Shown piece by piece: positions 4,636 to 64,000 of a DNA stretch of 64,000 nt. The position numbers and the translations under genes are program-made. Below the pieces are notes generated by a model, which did no database searches, was not told the origin of the DNA, and was given only the letters and a program-made list of their open reading frames with translations. Position 1 is the stretch's first letter, and every line of letters starts with the position of its first letter. Origin of the DNA: Candidatus Bipolaricaulota bacterium (GTDB taxonomy: Bacteria; Patescibacteriota; Patescibacteriia; UBA11705; DATKZF01); assembly GCA_035528115.1 (NCBI GenBank), contig DATKZF010000001.1:28508-92507 (forward strand), written 5' to 3'.

Positions 4636-5901
4636 ATGTCCTCAATAAAATTCGTTGAAATCGGCTACAAACCAAAGGTTGAAAAGGAGCTGATCGCTAC
4701 TTTTTACATGGAGCCGCATAAAGTTAAATTTCACGAAGCGGCGGACGCCGTGGCCGGCGAAAGCTCAATCGGGTCTTGGACGGAGCTGAAAACCTTGAGT
4801 CCGAAAACCGCAGTTCGTCTGAAGGCGCGGGTGTTTTATATCAACGAGAAAAAAAAGATCATCAAAATAGCTTATCCCATGGATTTGTTCGAGAAAGGCA
4901 GTATCCCGCAGTTGCTTTCAAGTCTGGGCGGTAACATTTTCGGCATGAAAGCCGTGAAAAATTTGCGTTGGCAAGATATTGAATTTCCAAAAAAATACAT
5001 TGATTCTTTCATGGGACCGGCTTTCGGAATTGAAGGAATCAGAAAAATTTTAAAAGTGAAAAACAGAGTTCTTTTGGGCAGTATCATCAAGCCGAAAGTG
5101 GGTTTGTCCGCCTTGGCGCAAGCCAAATTATCCGCGGTCGTCTGGCTCAACGGCATTGACTTGATCAAAGACGATGAGAATTTGACGGACATGGCTTTCA
5201 ATCGATTCGAAGATCGAGTGAAAAAAGTTTTTGAATGGAAGCGCAAAGTGGAAAAGGAAACCAAACAAGAAAAACTTTACGCCTGCAATATTACGGCCAC
5301 GCCTGATGAAATGCTCAGACGCGCCAAGTTGGTTAAAAAATACGGAGGCAGGTGCGTAATGATCGATTTGGTCTCGGTCGGTTTGGACAATGTCCAGTAT
5401 TTGCGAAAACAAAAATTAGGTTTGATAATTCACGGCCATCGAGCCGGTCACGCCATGTTCACTCGGTACAAAAAGCACGGCATGAGCATGCTTGTTTTGG
5501 CCAAGTTGTCCAGATTGGCCGGCATTGATCAATTGCACACGGGCACGGTTGTCGGTAAAATGGAAGGCAATGAAGAAGAGGTCATGACAGTCAATAATTT
5601 GCTTAAAGAAGATTGGGCCGCGTATAATGTCGTCAGAGAAGATTGGAGCAATATTAAGCCGGTGATGCCGATAGCGTCGGGCGGCTTGCATCCCGGGTTA
5701 TTGCCGAAATTGATTGAGATATTGGGGCAGGATTTGATTGTTAATTTCGGCGCGGGCATTCACGGACATCCTGACGGCTCGGCTGCCGGCGCCAGAGCCT
5801 GCTATCAAGCGGCCGAAGCGATCAGTAAAGGCATTGATTTGAAAAAATACGCTGAGGATCATGTTGAATTGGCCAGAGCGTTGGAGTATTGGAAATCCTG
5901 A
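4636..5901 (+). CDS. rbcL: Ribulose-1,5-bisphosphate carboxylase large subunit, form II/III (AMP-salvage type)
   Basis: KPKVGLS, GIDLIKDDE and GGLHPG motifs; 421 aa; no small subunit; typical form III N-terminus. Confidence 0.85.
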   Translation: MSSIKFVEIGYKPKVEKELIATFYMEPHKVKFHEAADAVAGESSIGSWTELKTLSPKTAVRLKARVFYINEKKKIIKIAYPMDLFEKGSIPQLLSSLGGNIFGMKAVKNLRWQDIEFPKKYIDSFMGPAFGIEGIRKILKVKNRVLLGSIIKPKVGLSALAQAKLSAVVWLNGIDLIKDDENLTDMAFNRFEDRVKKVFEWKRKVEKETKQEKLYACNITATPDEMLRRAKLVKKYGGRCVMIDLVSVGLDNVQYLRKQKLGLIIHGHRAGHAMFTRYKKHGMSMLVLAKLSRLAGIDQLHTGTVVGKMEGNEEEVMTVNNLLKEDWAAYNVVREDWSNIKPVMPIASGGLHPGLLPKLIEILGQDLIVNFGAGIHGHPDGSAAGARACYQAAEAISKGIDLKKYAEDHVELARALEYWKS

Positions 5902-6110: not shown

Positions 6111-6223
6111 AACCAAAGACCAAGGCTAGCTTATTAGCCGTAATGATTTGTAACGTATTCGTAACAAATATAACGCCAAGGCTAGCTAATTTAGAAGCAA
6201 TTATTTGTAACATGTAACGTATG
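6110..6223 (+). promoter_or_regulatory. Tandem family 2 leader element (two CCAAGGCTAGC...ATTTGTAAC units) running into the AMP phosphorylase ATG
   Basis: Same two-unit architecture found directly upstream of the VIT-family gene at 49191-49274. Confidence 0.5.
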
Positions 6224-7723
6224 GCTTTTTACCTAAAATGCAAAAAACTAGATTTCTCCACGGGCGACAAGCAAATCGTGGTGATCAATGATGAAGAAGC
6301 TGAAAGCTACGGCATTTATCCGGGAGATCGCTTGCTTTTGCAATGGAGCAAAAATAAAAAAGCGGCGGTGATCGCGGATACCACGGCCTCCAAAGTCAGG
6401 CCCGGCGAAATCGGTTTGTTTTCGGAAGTTTGGCGCAAATCCAATGTTGAATCGGGAGATATAGTGGAAGTGAATATCATGTCCAGACCTTTGTCCATTG
6501 AAACGATCAGAAAAAAGCTTTTGGGAAAACCCGTTACGTATGAAGAAATTTACGCGGTAATTAAGGATATTGTGGACGGCACGCTGGGTACCGTAGAGAC
6601 CACCTATTACGCGGCTTCAAGTTTCGTCAAAGACTATTCGATAGACGAACTTTATTATGTGGCCAAGGCCATGGCCGAAACGGGCGAGCAAATGGAATTG
6701 AAAGAGCGGATGGTGGACAAACATTCGGTCGGCGGTTTGGCCGGCAACAGAGTGACCCCTCTGGTCGTGTCCATTGTGGCTTCCTTGGGTTTGTATATTC
6801 CCAAAACGTCTTCTCGGGCGATCACGTCTCCGGCCGGCACGGCCGACACCATGGAAGTGATTTGTCCCGTTTCTTTTTCAATGGCGGAAATAAAAAAAAT
6901 AGTCAAAAAAACTCACGGCTGTTTTGTTTGGGGCGGCGGTCTTAATCTCGCGCCCGCCGATGATAAAATCATTAAAGTCTCCAGGCCGCTGGCGTTTGAG
7001 CCTTACGATAAAATGATTGTCAGCATTTTAGCCAAAAAGGTGGCCATGGGAGTTGATGATTTGGTTTTGGATATTCCGGTCGGTCCTTCGACCAAAGTGC
7101 CGGACATGGTTAAAGCCAACATGATTGAAAAAAAATTCATGGCCCTAGGCAAACGATTCGGCATGAAAATCAAAGCGGTGAAAACCAAAGCTTTGGAGCC
7201 GGTGGGCGACGGTATCGGGCCGGCCCTGGAAGCGCGCGATATTTTCCGCGTTTTGCAAAGGCATAAATTTCGACCGCTTGATTTGGAGAAAAAAGCCATT
7301 TTATTAGCGGGCGAGTTGCTCGAGCTCAATGGTTTCGCGAAAAAAGGCCATGGCAAAGCCATGGCCATGCAACAGCTTAAATCAAGCGCGGCCTGGGAGA
7401 AAATGAATGAAATCGTGGTGGCGCAAGGAGGCAAAGCCAACCAGCATTCCGAGGATTTCACTTCCGGAGCCAAGCGATATGAAATTCACGCGAAAAAGTC
7501 CGGCAAAGTGACGGCCATTGACAATAAAGCGATCAATGAAATTTGCATGAATTTGGGCGCTCCGAGCGACAAATTGGCCGGACTGCACCTCCATGTTCAT
7601 TATGGCGCCAAGGTTAAAAAAGGCGATAAATTGTTCACCGTTTACGGCTCATCGGATGACAGGCTGAAATTGGGCGTTTTGGCCAGCCGGGAGGTGGAAA
7701 TTTTCAAGATAAGCAAGAAATAA
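6221..7723 (+). CDS. deoA: AMP phosphorylase (thymidine phosphorylase family with archaeal-type N-terminal extension)
   Basis: 500 aa; pyrimidine-nucleoside phosphorylase fold plus the N-terminal extension typical of AMPpases; syntenic with rbcL and e2b2. Confidence 0.75.
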   Translation: MAFYLKCKKLDFSTGDKQIVVINDEEAESYGIYPGDRLLLQWSKNKKAAVIADTTASKVRPGEIGLFSEVWRKSNVESGDIVEVNIMSRPLSIETIRKKLLGKPVTYEEIYAVIKDIVDGTLGTVETTYYAASSFVKDYSIDELYYVAKAMAETGEQMELKERMVDKHSVGGLAGNRVTPLVVSIVASLGLYIPKTSSRAITSPAGTADTMEVICPVSFSMAEIKKIVKKTHGCFVWGGGLNLAPADDKIIKVSRPLAFEPYDKMIVSILAKKVAMGVDDLVLDIPVGPSTKVPDMVKANMIEKKFMALGKRFGMKIKAVKTKALEPVGDGIGPALEARDIFRVLQRHKFRPLDLEKKAILLAGELLELNGFAKKGHGKAMAMQQLKSSAAWEKMNEIVVAQGGKANQHSEDFTSGAKRYEIHAKKSGKVTAIDNKAINEICMNLGAPSDKLAGLHLHVHYGAKVKKGDKLFTVYGSSDDRLKLGVLASREVEIFKISKK

Positions 7724-7788
7724 TCGGCGCTGTTGCATTGCCGGATATTCTTTGATAATATATATTCATAAATAATAATTTCTATACT

Positions 7789-8532
7789 ATGGAAAAAAAT
7801 AAATCGAATTTTTGGATGGGATTTTTCGTGGGCTTGGCTTGCGTCAGTTTATTGTGTTTTTTGGGCTTGTTGATTTTCGTCTTCAGTCAGGGTGAAAACG
7901 TTAATTTGGCGGAGAAGGTTCAAGCGCAAGACGAACAGGATGTTGTCAGCGACATTAATCCGGTCGAGCAATATGCCGCGATTCCTCCATTGACGGCCGA
8001 TGACTATGTCAAAGGCGATCCGAACGCCAAAGTCGTTTTAATCGAATATTCGGATTTTGAATGTCCTTATTGTTTAATGCATTCGCAAACCATGGAACAA
8101 ATTGAAGATTTTTACGGCAATCAAATTGCCATCTCGTTCAGAAATTTTCCGCTGTCGTTTCATCCCGAGGCTCAAAAAGCGGCTGAAGCGGCTGAATGCG
8201 CGGGAGTTCAAGGCAAGTTTTGGGAAATGCATGACAAGCTTTTTGACATGAATGAGGCCGGAACACTTGGTTTGGATAATTTCAAGGCCGCGGCCAAAGA
8301 GTTGGGTTTGAACACGACAAAATTCAATCAATGCTTGGATGGCGGCGAAATGGCGGCCAGGATCGCAGAGCAGGCTTCCTTGGCGCAACAAGCCGGAGTA
8401 TCCGGCACGCCGGCGACTTTCGTGAACGGAGATTTGGTCAGCGGAGCCAGGCCGTTAGAGGATTTTACGGATCAAGATGGAAATTTGGCGCCGGGATTTC
8501 AAACTATTATCGAAACTTATTTGGGTGAATAA
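7789..8532 (+). CDS. DsbA-like thiol:disulfide oxidoreductase (thioredoxin fold, CPYC active site) with N-terminal membrane anchor
   Basis: FECPYC motif; N-terminal TM helix. Confidence 0.7.
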   Translation: MEKNKSNFWMGFFVGLACVSLLCFLGLLIFVFSQGENVNLAEKVQAQDEQDVVSDINPVEQYAAIPPLTADDYVKGDPNAKVVLIEYSDFECPYCLMHSQTMEQIEDFYGNQIAISFRNFPLSFHPEAQKAAEAAECAGVQGKFWEMHDKLFDMNEAGTLGLDNFKAAAKELGLNTTKFNQCLDGGEMAARIAEQASLAQQAGVSGTPATFVNGDLVSGARPLEDFTDQDGNLAPGFQTIIETYLGE

Positions 8533-9265: not shown

Positions 9266-9787
9266 TTGTCGATAAAGTTTAAAAATAATAAAATTAAAAT
9301 TATGGCCGACCAAACAATCAAACCAACCGGCTGTTGCGATCCGTTTAACCCCGAGCCGTGGGACAATAAAGAGATCGTCTGGGAAAATAAAATTTTTGTT
9401 AAAGACCATGTGACCAGTTTTTTTCATATTCCGCTGAATATGGGAAAGAAAATAATTAAAAATATGGCTTTGATTGAAAAAGCCGGAGCAAAATCTTCGT
9501 ACCAGCTGATGCTCACCGATGAAAAATCGCTTTGGGGCGCTGATATTTACATTGATGTGGCCAAAGAAGTCCCCGAAGCGCAGATGGCTAAGCTTTCCGG
9601 CACGTTTTTGACAAAGGTTTTTGAAGGACCTTATCAGAATGCTGGTAAATGGGCGATGGAGATGAAAGAATATGTTAAGTCTGAAAATAAAGAATTGAAA
9701 AAGCTTTATTTTTCATATACCACTTGCCCGGCCTGCGCCAAAGCGTATGGGAAAAATTACGTGGTGCTTTTCGCGCAAATAGATTAA
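9266..9787 (+). CDS. Hypothetical protein (probable start at the M at 9302)
   Basis: ORF only; no recognisable family. Confidence 0.4.
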   Translation: MSIKFKNNKIKIMADQTIKPTGCCDPFNPEPWDNKEIVWENKIFVKDHVTSFFHIPLNMGKKIIKNMALIEKAGAKSSYQLMLTDEKSLWGADIYIDVAKEVPEAQMAKLSGTFLTKVFEGPYQNAGKWAMEMKEYVKSENKELKKLYFSYTTCPACAKAYGKNYVVLFAQID

Positions 9788-18556: not shown

Positions 18557-19168
18557 TCATTCTTTGATGTGTCGAAATAGACTTGCGCAGGCCAGCGCCA
18601 GTGAAGGAATCAGGACGATGTAGGCCAAGATCAGCCAGATCGTCAGATCGGTCATGGCGAAAAGGTAGATCAAGAGCAGGCCTATCATTTCGCCCCAGGA
18701 TTTGACTTTACCTACGGGAAACGCGCTGATTTTCGCGCGCTTTTTTAGTTTTTTTGCCGAGAGCAATTTGAACACTCGGCAAACGACCAGTCCGGATTCG
18801 ATCAGCCAAAAGGCAATGATCAGCGGCAGCCAGACGGTCTTGCTGAAAAACAAGGTCAGCGGCACAAGAAAGCGGATCTTGTCGACCAGCGGGTCAAGGA
18901 ACGCGCCAGCTTGAGTTTGTTTGTTGAAGATTCTGGCGAATTTTCCGTCCAAAAGATCGAGTGGCCAGATGACCGCGCCGATCAGCAGGCATGACATCAA
19001 TACCTGGCTCCTAAAGTAAAGCCAAACTGCCACCATGAGCAGGGGCAGTTGAACGAGGGTGATGATGATGGGATGGATCTTGGCGCAGACCCGATTTCTC
19101 CGGATCGCATTGTCGATACCGGAACTCTCGGCGTAAAATACATCTTCGGATTTCGCTATCATTCGCAT
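18557..19168 (-). CDS. pgsA: CDP-alcohol phosphatidyltransferase (PgsA-like)
   Basis: DLLDGKFAR...G...D...D motif; multi-pass membrane protein. Confidence 0.7.
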   Translation of the reverse strand: MRMIAKSEDVFYAESSGIDNAIRRNRVCAKIHPIIITLVQLPLLMVAVWLYFRSQVLMSCLLIGAVIWPLDLLDGKFARIFNKQTQAGAFLDPLVDKIRFLVPLTLFFSKTVWLPLIIAFWLIESGLVVCRVFKLLSAKKLKKRAKISAFPVGKVKSWGEMIGLLLIYLFAMTDLTIWLILAYIVLIPSLALACASLFRHIKE

Positions 19169-54385: not shown

Positions 54386-54457
54386 TGTAGCCTCAAATCA
54401 AAGGCTTTTCAAACGGTTAGCTTGATAATTACGATTTTTTTGGTAGAATGGCATTAT

Positions 54458-56038
54458 ATGATTAAACCGGTTGAAAATTTATTGGCCGCTTATTTCGAGG
54501 AATCCAAGCCGTTGGAATATGAAGAGGAAAGCACTATTGGCGTGAATGAAGTGATTGCCAAGGCTGTTTTGGCTTATGAAAAAATTAGAAATATCGTGGA
54601 CTACCGCGATGAACATCTTTTGCGAAAAAGCGCCATTCAGCGCATTTGCAAAAGAAGGTTTTCCGAAGTGCTCCGAGGCGCTCAGATCGGCGATACATTG
54701 ATCAGGGAGTTGATTCGAGCCGGCTACGTGGCCAACCATTCTCTGCCGGAGACCAAAGTCAACGAATTGAACGGCGCTTTGAATAAGACGGCCAATCTGT
54801 GGCTGGCCGTAAAAGACTCTTTGACTTTTTCCGAACAAAAGAAAATTAAAAATTGGCTGCTGGGAATTTTATCGGTCGAGATTGAAGAATTGATCATAAA
54901 AACGGATTTCAAACGCGCGTTGGTCAATGCGGCGTTTTCGATCGCCAAATTGCAAACGGAAATTTTGGACGAAAAGATGTCCGATGATGAAAAGGATCTT
55001 CAACTTTACGTGGGCATTCAGCGGGCGTTGTTTAAGTCGGACAATGAGATGATCTCTTACGCTCTTTTACGTTTGTATTATCCGGCTTGGTTTGAAAATC
55101 CTGATGAAATTTTCGATGAAATTAAAATCAATATCCTGGGCATAAAGAAAATGATCGATCATCAGATTAAGCACCCGCTGGGCCGAAAGATCCAAAGATA
55201 TTGCAAATCATTCAGCGTTTATTTTTACGTCATTAAGGATTTGATTGAAGAAGATCCCGACCAAATCGAAGAAATTTTTTCCGACCCGGAGGCGACCAAG
55301 GAATTATTGAAGGGGATTATTGAAAAGAAAAAAATAGCGGTGAACAGTCGTCTGAATAAAAGCATTTGGCGCGCCATGATTTATATTTTGCTGACCAAAA
55401 TGCTGATCGCCTTGGCGCTGGAAGTGCCGTTCGAATATTTTTTATTCAAGGAAATTAACTTGATTCCGCTTTTCATAAATTTGTTCGGCCCCATTGTCTT
55501 GTTGTTTTTTATCGGCAAAACCATAGTTGTTTCATCAAGCAAAAACGCGGAGAAAATTCTGACGCAGACGATGAGTATTATTTACGGTTGGACCGAGAAT
55601 ATGAAGAAAACGATTATCAAGCCGCCGAGAAATTGGGGAGCGCTGAAACATATCATTTTCGGACTTTTTTACTTTTGCACTTATTTTATCAGCTTCGGCG
55701 CCATCGTCTGGGGTCTGGCCGAGCTTGAATTCAATGTGGTCAGCGGCGCGATATTTTTGGTGTTTTTGAGCATTGTCAGCTTTTTCGGCTACCGTTTGCG
55801 CCAAAATGCCAAAGAAATGTATGTGCTCAAGGAAAAAGGCGGTTTTTTGTCCAGCTTGATGGAATTTTTCTTCATGCCCGTTATAAAAGTGGGGCAGGAG
55901 ATTTCCACCAATTTTTCTAAAATAAACGTTTTTATTTTTATTCTCGACTTTATAATTGCCGCGCCGTTTAATATCATCATTGACATCATTGACGACTGGT
56001 TCGCGTTTTTGAAGGAGAAAAAGGATGAGATTTACTAA
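54458..56038 (+). CDS. Hypothetical membrane protein (soluble N-terminal domain, C-terminal TM bundle)
   Basis: ORF only. Confidence 0.4.
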   Translation: MIKPVENLLAAYFEESKPLEYEEESTIGVNEVIAKAVLAYEKIRNIVDYRDEHLLRKSAIQRICKRRFSEVLRGAQIGDTLIRELIRAGYVANHSLPETKVNELNGALNKTANLWLAVKDSLTFSEQKKIKNWLLGILSVEIEELIIKTDFKRALVNAAFSIAKLQTEILDEKMSDDEKDLQLYVGIQRALFKSDNEMISYALLRLYYPAWFENPDEIFDEIKINILGIKKMIDHQIKHPLGRKIQRYCKSFSVYFYVIKDLIEEDPDQIEEIFSDPEATKELLKGIIEKKKIAVNSRLNKSIWRAMIYILLTKMLIALALEVPFEYFLFKEINLIPLFINLFGPIVLLFFIGKTIVVSSSKNAEKILTQTMSIIYGWTENMKKTIIKPPRNWGALKHIIFGLFYFCTYFISFGAIVWGLAELEFNVVSGAIFLVFLSIVSFFGYRLRQNAKEMYVLKEKGGFLSSLMEFFFMPVIKVGQEISTNFSKINVFIFILDFIIAAPFNIIIDIIDDWFAFLKEKKDEIY

Positions 56039-56202
56039 GTGTTTTTCACTTAGCAATCCCGCTTTTGGCGGGGTTTTTTTTATTTGACTAAATTTAGTTT
56101 TGATTAGCATTCGACGAACCTTGGCGTGTCTGCTGGAATTCAGTCTGCGGCAGCGCGGGCTGTAAAGATCCAGAGCTGCCGGACGGATACAAACAATGTT
56201 GG

Positions 56203-56250
56203 GCAAAGGCCGCGTCCTTGCCCTTTTTTAATTGAAAAAATCGGCATTTT
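56203..56250. repeat. Left copy of a ~45-bp direct repeat (TTGGGCAAAGGnnnnnnnCTTGCCCTTTTTTAATTGAAAAAATC) flanking the GC-rich cassette
   Basis: Matches 57177-57230. Confidence 0.65.
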
Positions 56251-56342
56251 GAGCGCGATTTTGTTGTTGACAAAATGTTGAATATGGCGTATTATTAACT
56301 CTTGTCGTTGATTGCTGGAAACCGCAACTGTTGGAGGGCGGA

Positions 56343-57150
56343 AATGACGCTTATTTTCGATGAACGAGTTCAGGTCGAGCTTCTAGGTAGGGCATGGGGT
56401 GATTTTCACCCGACGAAGAGTGCGGAGGCTCACATACTCCTTGTCAGGGCCTCGGTCAGTCACAAGTTCGCCGAGCTGTTTTTGCCCAGCGTTGCTTTCA
56501 CGAACAGGGTGGCGGGCAGGCTGGACTCAAACGCTTTCCGTCTGGACGATGTACCTCCCTTGGCGTGGAGGACAACCACGAAGGCTGATGGCGGAATCAT
56601 CGTCAACGATCCGAGTGTGGCCGTGGGCATCTGCAACGCGGATTGCCACATCGGAGTGATCTACGAGCCACGTAGGCACATTCTGTGCGTTGTGCACTTG
56701 GGCCTCAAGTGCTTCCATCGACCGGACGGAGAGCCGAGCATTCTCCAGGAGGCCATCAAGGTGCTCCGTTGCGACTCTTCGGACCTTCTCTTTACCTTCG
56801 GCGGCGGAGCGGGCCCGTGTTGCTTCGGCTACGACCTCCATGATCCCAAGTTCGGCGATCAGAACATTCGCCAGGCCCAGGATCTCCGGAATCGGTTCGG
56901 AGAAGACGCGGTCAAGGGTGAAGTCGAGCGCGGGCCGCGTCGCGGTTTTGCCGCGCATGATCTTCCGACCATGATTTTGCGGCACGCGCAAGATCTCGGC
57001 TTGGCGATTCAAGACATCGATTTCACCTGTACTTCCTGCGCCGGCTTGAAGGTGGAGGGGGAGAACGAAGTCGGCGAGCGCATGTTCTGGTCGAATTTGC
57101 GAGGAGACGTGAACAACCGCAATTTCTTTTTCGCGCGCTTGGTCGGGTAG
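56343..57150 (+). CDS. YfiH/PgeF/LACC1-family purine-nucleoside enzyme (DUF152 laccase-domain protein); GC ~58% against genome ~40%
   Basis: ADCHIGV...VVHLGLKC and GGGAGPCCFGYD match the family motifs; GGAGGG Shine-Dalgarno-like site before the ATG. Confidence 0.55.
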
Positions 57151-57176
57151 CCGGCCGCGATCTGGAAGGAGACACT

Positions 57177-57230
57177 TTGGGCAAAGGACGCAGTTCTTGC
57201 CCTTTTTTAATTGAAAAATCCCGAGTTTTA
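57177..57230. repeat. Right copy of the ~45-bp direct repeat flanking the GC-rich cassette
   Basis: Matches 56203-56250. Confidence 0.65.
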
Positions 57231-57248
57231 AGCTAAACTGTGATTAAT

Positions 57249-58895
57249 ATGAAGCAATGGTTGAAAAAAAATCGGTTTGTCGTTATTTTGGCCGGCATTG
57301 GCATTGTGTGTTTTTTTATTTACGGCTTTTTGGCATTTACCGCGCCCAAGGAAATTTTCAATTCTCCGGATGAAACGGCCAATTATGTTTTTTCCAGCGC
57401 TTATTCGCGCGGCTCCATGGCCATGGCCGAGCCGGACAATTTAAGGGTTCAAGGAATCATTCATCCCAGAAGCGCCACGGTCAATGAAAAAGGGGACATA
57501 GTGCCCGGATATTTTTTGGGACTGCCGATTATTTTGGGTTTTTTGGCGAAAATTTTCGGCAGCGGGATCATTTCCTTTGTCACGCCGATTGTTTCGGCCA
57601 TAACGCCTTTGTTTTTTTACTGGGCCCTGAAAAATATTTTTGAAAAAAAAGTCGCTTTCATTTCAGCTTTGCTTTTATATTTTCATCCCATTTTTATTTA
57701 TTACAGCGCCAAAAGCTTGATGCCCAATGTTTTGTTCATTGATTTTTTGATAATTTCTTTGGCTTTTATTTTGAACGCCGGTTACAAGAAAGGCTTCAAA
57801 AATCAATTCAGAATCAAACCGATTTTGTTTTATCTATTGGCCGGCGCTTTTTTGGGTCTGGCCATGAGCATCAGACCATCGGAATTTTTCTGGGTGGTTT
57901 TTTTGTATTTGATTTTATTTCTTTTTGGAATTAAAAAAGTCAATTGGCCCGGTTTGATTTTGGGTCTTTTGGCCGCCGCTGCCGCGCAAATCCCGACCTT
58001 ACTGGAAAATATGGCGCTTTACGGCGGTTATTTGAAGCTGGGCTATAATACCAGGCTGCTGGGAGTCGAGCTTGATCAAGGCGGCGTTTTGGGATTGTTA
58101 AAATCAATTTTTTCATGGTCAACCGTTTTTCCGTTCGGCATCAAGCTCGCGGCCAGCGCCAATGTTTTTATCAATTATTTCTGGAGATTTTTAGGCTGGT
58201 ATCATCTTTGGCTTTTGCCCGGCCTGGCAGCTTCTGTCGTTTATTTGAAATTCAATTGGTCGCGCAAAATCGTTTACGCGATCGGCATTTTGGGAGTCGG
58301 CGCGTATTTGATTTTATATTACGGCGCTTATGTTTTTCAAGATAATATCAATTCCTCGCAGATTTCCATCGGCACGTCATATTTACGATATTGGCTGCCC
58401 CTGATGATCATGATTTTGCCCGTCATGGCTTATTCGATATACGCTGTTTGGCGTTTGTCCGAAAAATTCGGATTGAAAATAAAAGCGGCTTTCACGATTT
58501 TATTTTTTTTAATTTTGAATCTGTACACCTTTCAAATCGTCTTTGCCGAGACCAATGAAAGCTTGCTCGCCGTTAAAGAAAATTTGAAAAAATACGATTT
58601 TATTCGAGAAAACGTTTTGGCCGTTACCGAAGAGGACGCCATTATCATTTGCGACCGCTCTGATAAAATATTTTTCCCAAAAAGGCAAGTGATTGTTTTT
58701 CAGGAAAATTACGAGATTTTCCCGCTGATCAATCGGATCGTTTCACGCCGGCCCGTGTATTTTTACACCATGTTGCCGCCCGAAGACCTTAATTATTTGT
58801 CACAAAATAAAATCGCGAAAAGAAATTGGCAATTTTTCATTATCAACCGATTCGATAATTTTTATCTTTATAAATTGATCGGCGACAAGGATTGA
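57249..58895 (+). CDS. GT-C fold membrane glycosyltransferase (ArnT/PMT-like)
   Basis: ~12 TM helices in the N-terminal 400 aa then a soluble C-terminal domain; next to dehydratase, GT2 and DUF2304 genes. Confidence 0.45.
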   Translation: MKQWLKKNRFVVILAGIGIVCFFIYGFLAFTAPKEIFNSPDETANYVFSSAYSRGSMAMAEPDNLRVQGIIHPRSATVNEKGDIVPGYFLGLPIILGFLAKIFGSGIISFVTPIVSAITPLFFYWALKNIFEKKVAFISALLLYFHPIFIYYSAKSLMPNVLFIDFLIISLAFILNAGYKKGFKNQFRIKPILFYLLAGAFLGLAMSIRPSEFFWVVFLYLILFLFGIKKVNWPGLILGLLAAAAAQIPTLLENMALYGGYLKLGYNTRLLGVELDQGGVLGLLKSIFSWSTVFPFGIKLAASANVFINYFWRFLGWYHLWLLPGLAASVVYLKFNWSRKIVYAIGILGVGAYLILYYGAYVFQDNINSSQISIGTSYLRYWLPLMIMILPVMAYSIYAVWRLSEKFGLKIKAAFTILFFLILNLYTFQIVFAETNESLLAVKENLKKYDFIRENVLAVTEEDAIIICDRSDKIFFPKRQVIVFQENYEIFPLINRIVSRRPVYFYTMLPPEDLNYLSQNKIAKRNWQFFIINRFDNFYLYKLIGDKD

Positions 58896-61994: not shown

Positions 61995-62564
61995 ATGGAG
62001 GAAACGGAATTTAAGACAGGACTCGAAAATGAGGCGGATTTGGTGGAGCGCGCCAAGACCGATGACGGAGCTTTCGGCGTTTTGTACGGCTATTACTTTC
62101 CGAAAATTTACGGTTATATTTTTAAAAGAGTCGGCAACCGAGAAACCGCCGAGGACTTGGTGTCGGAAATTTTCATGAAAGTTTTTTGCAATCTCGAACG
62201 ATACTCGGCTCGCGGTTTTGGTTTTTCGACCTGGCTTTATAGGGTGGCCACCAATCATCTGACTGATTTTTATCGAAAAGCGGCCAATAGAAAAATTGTC
62301 GATATTGATCAAGTGGCTGAACCGGCCGACAAAATGCAGGGGATTGAAGATAAAATCCAAGTCGATCAAGATCGCGGTAAAATTCAATCAATTATTGCCA
62401 AACTCAAGCCAAACTATCAAAAAGTCTTAAATTTGAAGTATTTTGCGGAATTATCCACTTTTGAAATAGCGGATATTTTTAAAATAACTGAAAATAACGC
62501 TCGGGTGCTATTGCATCGGGCGCATAAAAGTTTTAAAAATTTATATGAAAAACATGGAAAATAA
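61995..62564 (+). CDS. ECF-type sigma-70 family sigma factor
   Basis: Region 2 (ETAEDLVSEIFMKVF...STWLYRVATNHLTDFYRK) and region 4 HTH (ELSTFEIADIFKITENNARVLLHRA). Confidence 0.8.
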   Translation: MEETEFKTGLENEADLVERAKTDDGAFGVLYGYYFPKIYGYIFKRVGNRETAEDLVSEIFMKVFCNLERYSARGFGFSTWLYRVATNHLTDFYRKAANRKIVDIDQVAEPADKMQGIEDKIQVDQDRGKIQSIIAKLKPNYQKVLNLKYFAELSTFEIADIFKITENNARVLLHRAHKSFKNLYEKHGK

Positions 62565-64000
62565 CCTAAAAAATGACGGTTTTAATCAAGAAATAAATTC
62601 TCAAAATCGTAATGATTTTGAGACTGAGCCGTTGAAAGAAGCAGATATGATTAACAAAGCTAAATTTAAGGCTGAACCTGCTTCTCAAGATTTTCAACAG
62701 GCTTTAAAGTCGAAAATCTTGGCGGCCAGATCAGCCAAACAAAGTATGAATAAGTTCGATTTCAGCAAGGTCATCAGCGCGATCAAGCCCAAAAATTTCG
62801 CGCCGGTCATGGCTTTTATTTTAATTATCGCCATTGTTTTCACCACCGTCCATTTTTGGCCGGATTCCAGAATTTCCGGACCATTCAAAACTCTCTCGGG
62901 TCTGATGATAAGTCCGGCTCACGCCGAGGATAATTTCGATGTCCAGCCCACTTTGAGCGATTCAATCGGAGTTGAAACCTCGACCGCGTTCATTATTAAA
63001 AGTAAAGACAAACTCGATTCCGATTTATTGAAGGAAAATATCAGCTTGATCCCGCAAACCGAGTTTGATTTTGAAAAAATCAGCGATTATGAATTTAAGG
63101 TGACTCCGAAAAACATTCTCGAAGGCAAAAAGGTTTATAATTTAAAAATCGAAGCCGCTTACGTCAATGATAACGGCATTGTTATCGCTCGCGATTTTTC
63201 ATGGGCTTTTCAGGTGAAGGATCAATTTAAGATCATAAACACTTTGCCGAAAGACAAAGCGTACAATGTTCCGTTGAACAGCGGAATCGAAGTGACTTTC
63301 AGTCATGAAGACATCAAAAATTACGAAAAGAATATTTTGATTGAACCTAAAGTGGAGGGCAGATTTGAAAAACATAAAAGAACCGTGGTTTTCGTGCCCA
63401 AAGGTTTGAGCGCCGGCACGATTTATACGGTCACGGTAAAAAAGGCTATTGAATTGCCCGGATCCGATAGCAAAATGGAGAACGATTATGTTTTTCAATT
63501 TGAAACCACCTCATCGGTCAATAAAAATTATTACAGCGGCGTAAGCTTTGTTGACAACTACATGGAATTTACGACCTCAAATCAAGCCGCTTTTCAGGTG
63601 TATTCATATGGCAACGAATTGGAGACCGCGGCTCAAATTCCAATGACGATTTATTCGTTCAAAAGCGAAAATCAATTTGTTGACGCGATCAACAAGGTCA
63701 ATGACATTCCTTCCTGGGCTTATTACAGCAATAGAATGTACTCGTACGATATATCGGCGTTGAATAAAGCCGATTCCTTCGAGCTGGCATTGCAGGAGTA
63801 CGGTTATTCCAATTACTTATTATTGCCTGAAAATTTGTCCGCCGGTTATTATTTGGCTGAAGTGGATTATCAAGGCCGCCGAGCGCAGACATATTTCGTG
63901 GTGACCGATATTTCCGCGTACAGCATGCTTTCGGAAAATAAAATCTTGGTCTGGGTCAATGATTTAAAGACCAAAGAGCCGATCGCCAACGCCGATGTTC
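62555..64000 (+). CDS. Membrane-anchored large extracytoplasmic protein, partial (runs off the window); candidate anti-sigma factor and/or alpha-2-macroglobulin-like MG-domain protein
   Basis: Open frame from the ATG at 62555 to the window end; ~85-aa cytoplasmic N-terminus, one TM (FAPVMAFILIIAIVFTTVHF), then beta-rich repeats; start overlaps the sigma-factor stop. Confidence 0.45.

Follow-up and report, generated by a model that had tools for sequence, protein, structure and literature searches.

A GC-rich PgeF-like gene at an ancestral Patescibacteria locus is probably a swapped-in foreign version and not a new cassette

In this study, we report the analysis of a GC-rich gene encoding a PgeF-like protein, and of the two 44-nt direct repeats that flank it, in a 64-kb stretch of DNA (the whole stretch analysed, 64,000 nt, is referred to here as the window). 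The gene is probably a foreign version swapped into a long-occupied slot, and not a new cassette. Our preferred reading, to which a probability of roughly 0.55 is given, is that the allele of an ancestral locus was replaced, or was regained after loss, from a GC-richer relative within its clade through recombination at a terminator/promoter module. The original prediction had taken the gene for a recently inserted cassette with att-like or target-site-duplication borders. Comparison with related loci (designated L002 to L011) and analysis of the repeats and of the encoded protein lead to a different history, and to a different suggestion for the function of the enzyme.

Layout and composition of the locus

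The PgeF-like gene occupies positions 56344 to 57150 on the forward strand and encodes 268 aa. The start ATG at 56344 is favoured over a TTG at 56302, as a Shine-Dalgarno sequence GGAGGG (56333-56338, forward strand) lies 5 nt upstream of it and the resulting N-terminus agrees with those of the orthologues; GGAGG(G) is found at the equivalent place in relatives. The NCBI protein HUT21854.1, which falls into the same 90% cluster, likewise has 268 aa. The GC content of the gene is 0.58, with 0.61, 0.42 and 0.70 at the first, second and third codon positions, whereas the mean over the window's 61 open reading frames that encode 100 aa or more is 0.432 for GC (sd 0.036) and 0.494 for GC3 (sd 0.063). 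The gene is therefore the top outlier in both measures, and the step in GC that first drew attention to it is borne out. In the flanking genes GC3 is 0.50-0.54, and one other gene of the window has a value of 0.66.

Tetranucleotide content marks 56251-57250 as the most atypical of 253 1-kb stretches (z = 5.0), and a dinucleotide measure that is independent of GC gives a mild signal for the same positions (z = 2.6). Analysis of GC by segment placed the gene within a block of about 1.1 kb with sharp edges (approximately 56100-57176), to which the GC3 excess of +0.20 is limited. The left part of this island is a non-coding stretch of 99 bp (56100-56198, no strand assigned) with 54% GC, and its right end is a tail of 26 nt with 65% GC between the stop codon and the right-hand hairpin (57151-57176, forward strand). 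These GC-rich non-coding flanks count against codon selection alone, and by its composition the window's copy does look foreign.

Several candidate identities of the 99-bp stretch were rejected. A remnant of a PgeF-like gene is contradicted by the profile search, in which all six frames scored negatively, and by DNA alignment to the gene, which reached the level of shuffled sequence only. A remnant of the extra open reading frames x147 and x151 of L004 and L010 was dismissed for lack of a significant match, and a known RNA because neither an Rfam match near threshold nor a tRNA was found and the fold gave z = -1.0. Nothing similar was detected elsewhere in the window or in the relatives' loci, and the promoter scan returned none for this stretch. 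The window holds no second PgeF-like copy.

On the left the locus is anchored by up538 (54422-56038, forward strand), a membrane protein gene without a Pfam match that has orthologues in relatives. A terminator scan predicted an intrinsic terminator for it (T1, 56055-56083, forward strand), with a 9-bp stem followed by T8 (-12.5 kcal/mol, z = -3.3). Right behind T1 stands TTGACT, followed by an A/T-rich spacer but not by a usable -10 box (56084-56112, forward strand), possibly the relic of a resident promoter. In L003 the up538 terminator leads directly into the TTGACA of the PgeF-like promoter; the window shows this type of layout twice, at 56084-56112 without a -10 box and at 56241-56295 with one. 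The latter begins with a decayed hairpin and T-run, ATCG...CGAT TTTTGTTG (56241-56266, forward strand), which aligns with the terminator hairpin that L002 and L003 carry just 5' of the PgeF-like promoter. It is followed by the predicted sigma-70-type promoter of the gene, TTGACA-17-TATTAT (56267-56295, forward strand), which agrees with the consensus at 11 of 12 positions in the promoter scan and is also present in L002, L003 and L006, with a weaker TTGACT form in L004.

The right anchor, dn548 (57249-58895, forward strand), encodes a PMT_2-type membrane glycosyltransferase (Pfam PF13231). Its predicted promoter, TTGAAA-17-TAAACT (57211-57239, forward strand), was likewise found by the promoter scan. 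Since the ATG of dn548 lies only 9 nt past the -10 box and has no Shine-Dalgarno sequence, its mRNA is probably leaderless. L002, L003 and L004 share the TTTAAGCTAAA(C/A)T box and its 9-nt distance from the ATG; in L011 this distance is 11 nt. Both predicted sigma-70-type promoters are kept in position among the relatives.

The 44-nt repeats and the locus in related genomes

The two repeats lie at 56199-56242 and 57177-57220. That the gene is flanked by direct repeats is thus correct, but the left copy starts 4 nt earlier than had been claimed (56199, not 56203). Each copy consists of a hairpin, a T-run and AATTGAAAAA, and reads TTGGGCAAAGG, a loop of 7 or 8 nt, CTTGCCCTTTTTTAATTGAAAAA and (A)TC. 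A search of the 64 kb found these two copies only, and 100 shuffles yielded none. Both copies fold into hairpins (-11.6 and -12.1 kcal/mol) with T6 right behind them, in keeping with the earlier description of each as a hairpin plus T-run; judged by these features they qualify as predicted intrinsic (Rho-independent) terminators. Outside the hairpin top the copies are identical over 34 nt, save one A in the 3' A-run, and the remaining differences sit at the hairpin top, where both versions still pair. The resemblance ends with this 44-nt core: alignment of the flanks, the -10 region included, gave no significant similarity and stayed at the level of shuffled sequence.

The right copy (57177-57220, forward strand) begins 26 nt past the stop codon of the PgeF-like gene and, from orthology and folding, is predicted to be the native terminator of that gene fused to the -35 box of dn548. 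An orthologous hairpin, T-run and AATTGAAAAA occur in L002 and L003, and in L004 and L011 the hairpin and T-run are set apart from the -35 box. The 230-bp insert that separates terminator and promoter in L004 gave no Rfam match. The complete T-run/-35 motif is single, and 3' of the gene, in L002, L003 and L005; L004 and L011 have diverged single versions only. The stems of the orthologous junctions vary in sequence between lineages, although all of them fold and T6 follows in L002, L003 and L004. As these stems drift fast, the near-identity of the two copies in the window points to a recent common origin. In its 5' arm the right hairpin reads GGCAAAG, in agreement with L003 and L004 and not with L002, while the protein is closest to those of L002 and L006.

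The left copy (56199-56242, forward strand), composed of a hairpin, T6 and AATTGAAAAAATC, is specific to the window lineage. It lies about 100 bp within the GC-rich block and not at its edge, and its TTGAAA is not followed by a -10 box at a distance of 17 nt. From its sequence it is probably an extra terminator that shields the PgeF-like promoter from read-through.

A PgeF-like gene is found between the same neighbours, with a promoter of the form TTGACA-17-TAT(T/A)(A/G)T, in four related lineages (L002/L005, L003, L004/L008/L009 and L010), which speaks against a recent insertion; in L004, L008 and L009 the site holds a tandem pair of paralogues. In L002, L003, L004 and L008-L011 the gene, or the empty site, directly follows an orthologue of up538 (68-77% identical), and in L002, L003, L004 and L011 a dn548 orthologue with 58-62% identity is found on the downstream side. 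A scan of species-representative genomes using the upstream neighbour as a single protein produced no match, and an alignment-based scan found L004 and L005. The PgeF-like orthologues are 41-58% identical to the window protein, inside the 40-72% range of the neighbours. L010 was considered as a closer relative and rejected, as it is not meaningfully nearer than L004 and its contig holds just 36 PgeF-like codons.

An empty site with a single junction, of the kind that the original prediction had proposed to look for, exists in L011. Here 362 AT-rich bp separate the up538 stop codon from the dn548 start; the junction between them comprises one hairpin/T-run and one AATTGAAAAATC...TTTTTAAGCTAAAAT box, and the 13.6-kb locus as a whole showed no PgeF-like gene. 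The gene is thus dispensable in the clade. An empty-site variant within the window's own population was also sought and discarded, since all the contigs inspected that have an identical downstream protein share the neighbourhood.

The high GC3 is not a general property of the locus. Compared with their own neighbours, the orthologues have GC3 values of 0.53 against 0.52-0.54 in L002 (where the reading frame was mended by one base from the sequence), 0.33 against 0.30 in L003, 0.25 and 0.31 against 0.23-0.31 in L004, and 0.30 against 0.33 in L007. Raised GC3 was seen only in the window copy and in its nearest homologue, L006, which is 60% identical and has a GC3 of 0.75, with 0.65 in an adjoining gene fragment. 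The original prediction had named an equally GC-rich orthologue at the same site in all relatives as the finding that would speak against it. The locus proved to be old but its high GC3 is not shared, so that only half of that picture was observed. The idea of a donor outside the CPR found no support, as the nearest homologues belong to the same small clade.

Origin of the GC-rich version

We propose that a self-contained single-gene unit, comprising the promoter (56267-56295), the Shine-Dalgarno sequence, the gene (56344-57150) and the terminator/-35 junction (57177-57239), has long been resident in a small Patescibacteria clade between the 538-aa membrane protein and the PMT_2-type glycosyltransferase. 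The locus appears changeable, the gene having apparently been lost in one lineage and being present as two tandem paralogues in another. In the window lineage the resident allele would have been replaced, or lost and then regained, by recombination in or beside the conserved terminator/promoter module, with a relative of higher GC within this clade as the source of the incoming homologue. The GC-rich block (about 56100-57176) and the second 44-nt module 5' of the gene's promoter would be the traces of this event. The right copy would end the PgeF-like transcript and start that of dn548, and the left copy would stop read-through into the PgeF-like promoter, for which the relatives use a different hairpin that has decayed in the window.

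Replacement of a gene at its own locus by a foreign homologue and Campbell-type integration by a single crossover are both known processes. The window resembles them in having a homologue of foreign composition in an ancestral slot, repeats of native sequence around it, and an empty state in a relative. It departs from them in that no donor was identified (the closest homologue among those sampled is the L006 protein, and none of them represents a donor genome), the homology amounts to 44 nt only, and the 99-bp stretch to the left of the left repeat misfits a clean single crossover. Against replacement itself, a simple double crossover yields no second copy of the module, and a Campbell-type insertion would place the 99-bp GC-rich stretch in the recipient without accounting for it.

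Neighbour-joining trees were also compared. The PgeF-like tree grouped the window with L002 and L006, leaving L003 outside (100% bootstrap), whereas the concatenated neighbour genes paired L002 with L003. However, dn548 alone also grouped the window with L002, this grouping tracks genome GC (43% and 43% versus 33% and 32%), and a PgeF-like quartet with the paralogue L004a and unrecoded residues showed a slight preference for the species topology. The conflict between the gene and its neighbours is therefore not decisive.

The most serious competitor, which we regard as possible but clearly less probable, is vertical descent with a local rise in GC through biased gene conversion, mutation bias or codon selection, the left module being a separate duplication or gene conversion. 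In its favour, locus, promoter and terminator are as in the relatives, the dinucleotide signature is mild, another window gene attains a GC3 of 0.66, the quartet is ambiguous, and dn548 shares the grouping of the window with L002. Against it stand the sharp edges of the GC3 excess, which is confined to about 1.1 kb and accompanied by GC-rich non-coding flanks, and the GC-richness of the nearest homologue, L006. Moreover, GC3 is not raised in orthologues whose promoters are just as strong, which counts against an effect of expression level.

A tandem duplication of the PgeF-like unit together with its terminator, the upstream copy having decayed to the 99-bp stretch and the left terminator, is improbable. 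Tandem paralogues do occur at this site in L004, L008 and L009, and the 99 bp are, like the gene, rich in GC, but they are unlike it at both the protein-profile and the DNA level, and such decay next to a 44-nt module that is nearly identical to its partner would be implausibly uneven.

It is very improbable that the gene is a mobile cassette new to this genome, brought in by site-specific recombination or transposition, with the 44-nt repeats as att-like sites or a target-site duplication. Direct repeats on both sides, foreign-looking composition and the single junction of the empty site in L011 suggested it, but the relatives show this family to be an old resident of the very same slot, the repeat on the right corresponds to the conserved native terminator/promoter junction, and the left repeat lies inside the GC-rich block, about 100 bp from its border. 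Target-site duplications are usually far shorter than 44 nt. Among the called genes within 10 kb there is no Pfam match to an integrase, recombinase or transposase, no attC was seen nearby, and a unit with the same repeats at unrelated genomic sites or beside a recombinase was not found. A phage origin was rejected, as no relative was present in viral contigs. The arrangement does resemble integron cassettes in that a single gene stands between similar imperfect palindromes. Unlike typical integron cassettes, however, the PgeF-like gene has its own promoter with 11/12 consensus positions; unlike attC, each palindrome forms a terminator hairpin followed by a T-run, an arrangement kept with different stems in relatives, and no inverse core RYYYAAC was seen. 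Transposons and insertion sequences differ from it in their terminal inverted repeats, none of which was reported around the gene, and in their transposase.

Finally, it is highly unlikely that the two copies belong independently to a terminator family spread over the genome, with no shared local history: both are hairpins with T-runs at transcription-unit ends, and a terminator leading straight into a -35 box recurs in the clade, but just two copies occur in 64 kb where none is expected by chance, and they agree over 34 nt save one A while the orthologous stems of relatives differ.

Beyond replacement at the ancestral locus, the compact terminator-plus-promoter junction might serve, in Patescibacteria genomes as small as these, as a short-homology landing pad, by which a single-gene unit is lost, duplicated and regained at a fixed slot without an integrase. 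We consider this a long shot. If it were true, the empty site of L011, the single genes of L002 and L003, the tandem pair of L004 and the window's foreign allele with its duplicated junction would be stages of one exchange.

The encoded enzyme

The assignment of the protein to the YfiH/PgeF/LACC1 family was upheld, as a divergent subfamily of that fold. Residues 77-232 match Pfam PF02578 (Cu-oxidase_4, DUF152) with 32.9 bits against a gathering cut-off of 22.9 (E = 5.6e-8), and the motifs NADCH, VHLGLK and GPCCFGYD are present. The NCBIfam equivalog TIGR00726 (PgeF) scored 27 bits, below its cut-off of 141.15; the strict name PgeF is therefore unwarranted, and 'PgeF-like' is the most that can be used. 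Among solved structures, the best match at sequence level was to 7fbg (E = 3.4e-6), over residues 79-231 only. An AlphaFold model of the protein was obtained with a pLDDT of 80.8 and a pTM of 0.81, and in a Foldseek search against the PDB the best 18 matches were all YfiH/YlmD/DUF152 structures (TM 0.58-0.69). The protein is a distant YfiH/PgeF-fold enzyme in which the predicted Cys-His-Asp triad is kept.

The catalytic triad of E. coli YfiH consists of Cys107, His124 and Asp89 (PMC8844914). The corresponding residues predicted for the PgeF-like protein are D82, C101 and H118. When the protein is aligned to the PDB profile, A99-D100-C101 falls on the ADC turn, H118 lies 17 residues past C101, the same spacing as Cys107-His124, and D82 lies 19 residues ahead of C101, compared with 18 in E. 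coli. Across 150 subfamily members the triad is retained at D82 in 149, at C101 in 145 and at H118 in 144. By position, the counterpart of His71, which contacts the substrate in E. coli YfiH, would be N54 in a conserved FTN motif, an equivalence deduced in an N-terminal region to which no profile is anchored; here 74 subfamily members have N, 35 have T and 11 have H. The subfamily is small: out of 1.84 billion, 53 cluster representatives reach E <= 1e-30, and 183 subfamily representatives reach E <= 1e-10.

The fold resembles that of E. coli YfiH/PgeF (PDB 1Z9T, 7W1G, 7F3V; Foldseek TM 0.60-0.69), and the conserved elements include an Arg-Asn pair near the C-terminus. Sequence identity to these proteins is 13-14% only, HLGLKC stands in place of HAGWRG, and the PgeF-like gene adjoins envelope glycosylation genes. 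With YlmD/PgeF of Bacillus and Geobacillus (PDB 7FBG, 6DZD, 6T0Y, 1T8H), to which 7fbg belongs, it has the GP..CCY and CTSC cysteine motifs in common, at 16-18% identity.

The original prediction had further proposed a purine-salvage activity complementing the AMP phosphorylase and RuBisCO pathway. This idea derives from human FAMIN/LACC1, a multifunctional purine nucleoside enzyme (PMC6978800), which shares PF02578 with the PgeF-like protein. A 2025 study bearing on the physiological role of bacterial PgeF found that the purine nucleoside phosphorylase activity of the bacterial homologues is weak and without physiological relevance (PMC12280929). In the window, the AMP phosphorylase and RuBisCO genes lie about 50 kb from the PgeF-like gene, and nothing in the locus links them. 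The gene forms its own transcription unit inside a run of membrane-protein and glycosyltransferase genes. By analogy, we would guess that the substrate is a nucleotide-sugar-linked or muropeptide-type envelope precursor, hydrolysed in the manner of PgeF; a purine-salvage role is less likely.

No major picture is altered by these findings. The case shows that relatives should be checked before a compositional island with flanking repeats is called a new mobile cassette. A further outcome is the description of a small branch of the YfiH/PgeF family that has seen little sampling; it keeps the predicted triad, apparently lacks His71, and in Patescibacteria appears to have undergone gain, loss and duplication at a single locus. 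Should the enzyme turn out to edit precursors of the cell wall or envelope, this would bear on how the envelope is maintained in these reduced bacteria.

The PgeF-like gene and its product

The PgeF-like gene was read from the sequence as an ORF of 268 aa on the plus strand, extending from an ATG at 56344 to a stop codon at 57150, with a Shine-Dalgarno-like GGAGGG 5 nt before the ATG. Gene callers chose a TTG (56302, giving 282 aa) on other assemblies; three lines of evidence favour the ATG: how the orthologues align, where the -10 box lies, and the length of HUT21854.1, an NCBI protein from the same 90% cluster that also has 268 aa. The record of HUT21854.1 bears the label 'Candidatus Bipolaricaulota bacterium' (MAG TPA) and that of the related locus L004 'uncultured Gammaproteobacteria'; both labels look wrong, because gene content and all named homologues indicate Patescibacteria.

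The protein was assigned to PF02578 (32.9 bits, cut-off 22.9), a six-homologue profile matched the solved structure of a Bacillus cereus enzyme (7fbg, E = 3.4e-6), and the 18 best PDB matches of the AlphaFold model (pLDDT 81) were YfiH/YlmD/DUF152 structures (TM 0.58-0.69, identity 13-18%). Cys107, His124 and Asp89, which form the catalytic triad in E. coli YfiH (PMC8844914), have C101, H118 and D82 as their counterparts; among 150 subfamily members, 145 retain the Cys, 144 the His and 149 the Asp. By position, His71 of E. coli YfiH aligns with an Asn, at a site where 74 subfamily members have N, 35 have T and 11 have H. With 27 bits against a cut-off of 141, the protein is not a member of the strict PgeF equivalog model. 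Its subfamily is small, with 53, 183 and 920 cluster representatives at E <= 1e-30, 1e-10 and 1e-3, respectively, among 1.84 billion.

The gene forms a transcription unit by itself and is surrounded by genes for membrane proteins and glycosyltransferases. Bacterial homologues are reported to edit UDP-MurNAc-Ser/Gly physiologically, and their purine nucleoside phosphorylase activity is weak and without physiological relevance (PMC12280929); FAMIN provides the precedent for a purine enzyme in this family (PMC6978800). An envelope-precursor hydrolase is favoured, with low confidence. No support was found for a purine-salvage role complementing AMP phosphorylase and RuBisCO, whose genes lie at 4.6-7.7 kb: the RuBisCO large-subunit gene (4636-5901) adjoins a gene with nucleoside/AMP phosphorylase-type domains (6221-7723), about 50 kb away.

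The locus in related lineages

Comparison with related lineages revealed that the locus is old and ancestral. In several of them the gene lies between up538, encoding a 538-aa membrane protein, and dn548, encoding a PMT_2-type glycosyltransferase. This arrangement was found in L002 and in L005 (a MAG carrying the label Patescibacteria), with PgeF-like proteins 57% identical to the window's, in L003 (46%), and in L010, whose contig holds just the start of the gene. The same site in L004, L008 and L009 carries two tandem PgeF-like paralogues (41% and 35% identity) and extra ORFs. The paralogues overlap (7731-9346 in L004) and are about 35% identical to one another; of two extra ORFs upstream, one encodes a coiled-coil protein containing GRLDKVE repeats and the other, of 147 aa, is on the minus strand. 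Neighbour genes in the relatives are 58-77% identical to those of the window; beyond these lineages, identity of up538 homologues falls to 40% and their neighbours differ. A strong promoter directly upstream of the PgeF-like gene is common to all lineages (mostly TTGACA-17-TATTAT or TATAGT; TTGACT in L004).

An empty site, as sought under the original prediction, was found in L011, where up538 (72% identical) is followed by 362 AT-rich bp, holding one hairpin/T-run and one promoter box, and then by dn548. No PgeF-like gene was found in this locus; the unit can therefore be lost. A search within the window's own population found no empty variant. Downstream gene order in L011 is that of the window, a sigma-70 factor gene followed by one for a giant alpha-2-macroglobulin-like protein of about 1878 aa with Hint/intein-type domains (PT-HINT, Hint_2, Vint; window ~62545-64000, L001 16244-20849). 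A short reading frame in the empty site (7700-7830), ending ...REKEIITAEQKRELEALIY, resembles by eye the C-terminus of the L004 coiled-coil ORF x151 and may be a remnant of such a gene. The locus changes over time and was seen empty, with a single gene and with a tandem pair.

The flanking terminator/promoter modules

The gene is flanked by two copies of a 44-nt repeat (56199-56242 and 57177-57220), each a hairpin followed by T6 and a -35-like sequence. The repeat occurs twice in 64 kb and in none of 100 shuffles, and left/right similarity ends at the limits of the 44-nt core. In L002 and L003 the PgeF-like stop codon is followed by a hairpin, a T-run, AATTGAAAAA(A/T) and then TTTAAGCTAAA(C/A)T, with the next gene's ATG 9 nt further on. 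The terminator stems vary by lineage, yet every one folds; conserved elements are the T-run, TTGAAA and the TAAACT/TAAAAT box. The terminator and the next promoter are split in L004 by a 230-bp insert, so these are two separate functional pieces. This recurring layout, together with the L004 split, identifies the right copy as the predicted native terminator of the PgeF-like gene, joined directly to the -35 box that belongs to the promoter of the next gene; the 5' arm of this copy, GGCAAAG, is the same in L003 and L004. The insert (9380-9610) is GC-richer, contains the 26-nt sequence GTTACTTTTTGGCGCCAAAAAGTAAC, a perfect palindrome, as well as an inverted repeat of 10 bp, CTGGGGGGCT...AGCCCCCCAG, and had no match in an Rfam search. 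The -10 box of dn548 (TAAACT or TAAAAT) is conserved 9 nt before the ATG (11 nt in L011) without a Shine-Dalgarno sequence (57234-57251 in the window, 10873-10897 in L002, 3497-3519 in L003 and 9640-9657 in L004); the mRNA is therefore probably leaderless.

The full T-run/-35 motif was present once only in each of L002, L003 and L005, and L004 and L011 have only single, diverged versions. The left copy is restricted to the window's lineage and lies directly upstream of a decayed hairpin and T-run (56241-56266), which aligns with the terminator that in L002 and L003 precedes the promoter of the PgeF-like gene. Outside the hairpin top the two copies are identical save for one A in the 3' A-run; since stems drift between lineages, this implies a recent common origin. 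The hairpin-top difference preserves pairing (GGC/GUC versus GGAC/GUUC), a pattern which suggests that both hairpins are kept by selection.

Composition and origin of the window allele

The PgeF-like ORF (GC 0.58, GC3 0.70) is the top outlier in both measures among the 61 window ORFs of at least 100 aa (mean GC 0.432, sd 0.036; mean GC3 0.494, sd 0.063). In tetranucleotide content, none of 253 1-kb stretches is more atypical than 56251-57250 (z = 5.0); a GC-independent dinucleotide measure gives only z = 2.6. The second-highest GC3 (0.66; total GC 0.51) belongs to a CDP-alcohol phosphatidyltransferase gene (18557-19168, minus strand), which may be a further compositional outlier. Non-coding flanks are also GC-rich (54% at 56100-56198, 65% at 57151-57176), which argues against codon selection and places the island's left edge about 100 bp left of the left repeat. 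The 99-bp stretch 56100-56198, between the up538 terminator and that repeat, yielded no detectable homology, ORF, promoter or RNA family match.

In every relative, the orthologue's GC3 matches that of its own neighbours (for L002, after a one-base reading-frame correction from the sequence), and its higher total GC is due to codon positions one and two, an expected pattern where a soluble enzyme has membrane proteins as neighbours. The only outliers against their neighbours are the window copy (0.70 versus 0.50-0.54) and that of L006, the nearest homologue (0.75; adjoining gene fragment 0.65). The window allele is thus atypical, as predicted for a horizontal acquisition, but the gene is not new to the locus. 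Neighbour-joining placed the window protein with L002 and L006 (100% bootstrap), apart from L003; the up538 tree paired L002 with L003 (90%), and a quartet test on concatenated neighbours gave the same conflict (915/1000). Because dn548 by itself agrees with the PgeF-like grouping, and this grouping tracks genome GC, the conflict is only suggestive support for a foreign allele.

Insertion as a mobile cassette is not supported, as Pfam matched none of the called genes within 10 kb to an integrase or transposase family, neither attC features nor phage relatives were found, and the locus is ancestral in relatives. Nor is a reading of the repeats as att-like or target-site-duplication borders supported, the right being a native terminator/-35 junction and the left lying about 100 bp inside the island. 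The window state is best explained by replacement or regain of the unit, in which DNA from a GC-richer member of the clade would have entered by recombination around the terminator/promoter module, leaving a second module copy behind. Duplication of the module is expected from a single crossover and not from a double one, but the single crossover does not account for the 99-bp GC-rich stretch. A TTGACT without a -10 box directly 3' of the up538 terminator (56084-56089) may be what is left of the resident unit's promoter, which would put the left junction near 56100.

The ORF, its GC contrast and the flanking repeats of the original prediction were thus confirmed with small corrections of coordinates, and its interpretation was partly supported. 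At a site where the gene is ancestral, the window probably carries a foreign allele from a known enzyme family, together with a terminator/promoter junction that has been duplicated, a case ordinary in kind.
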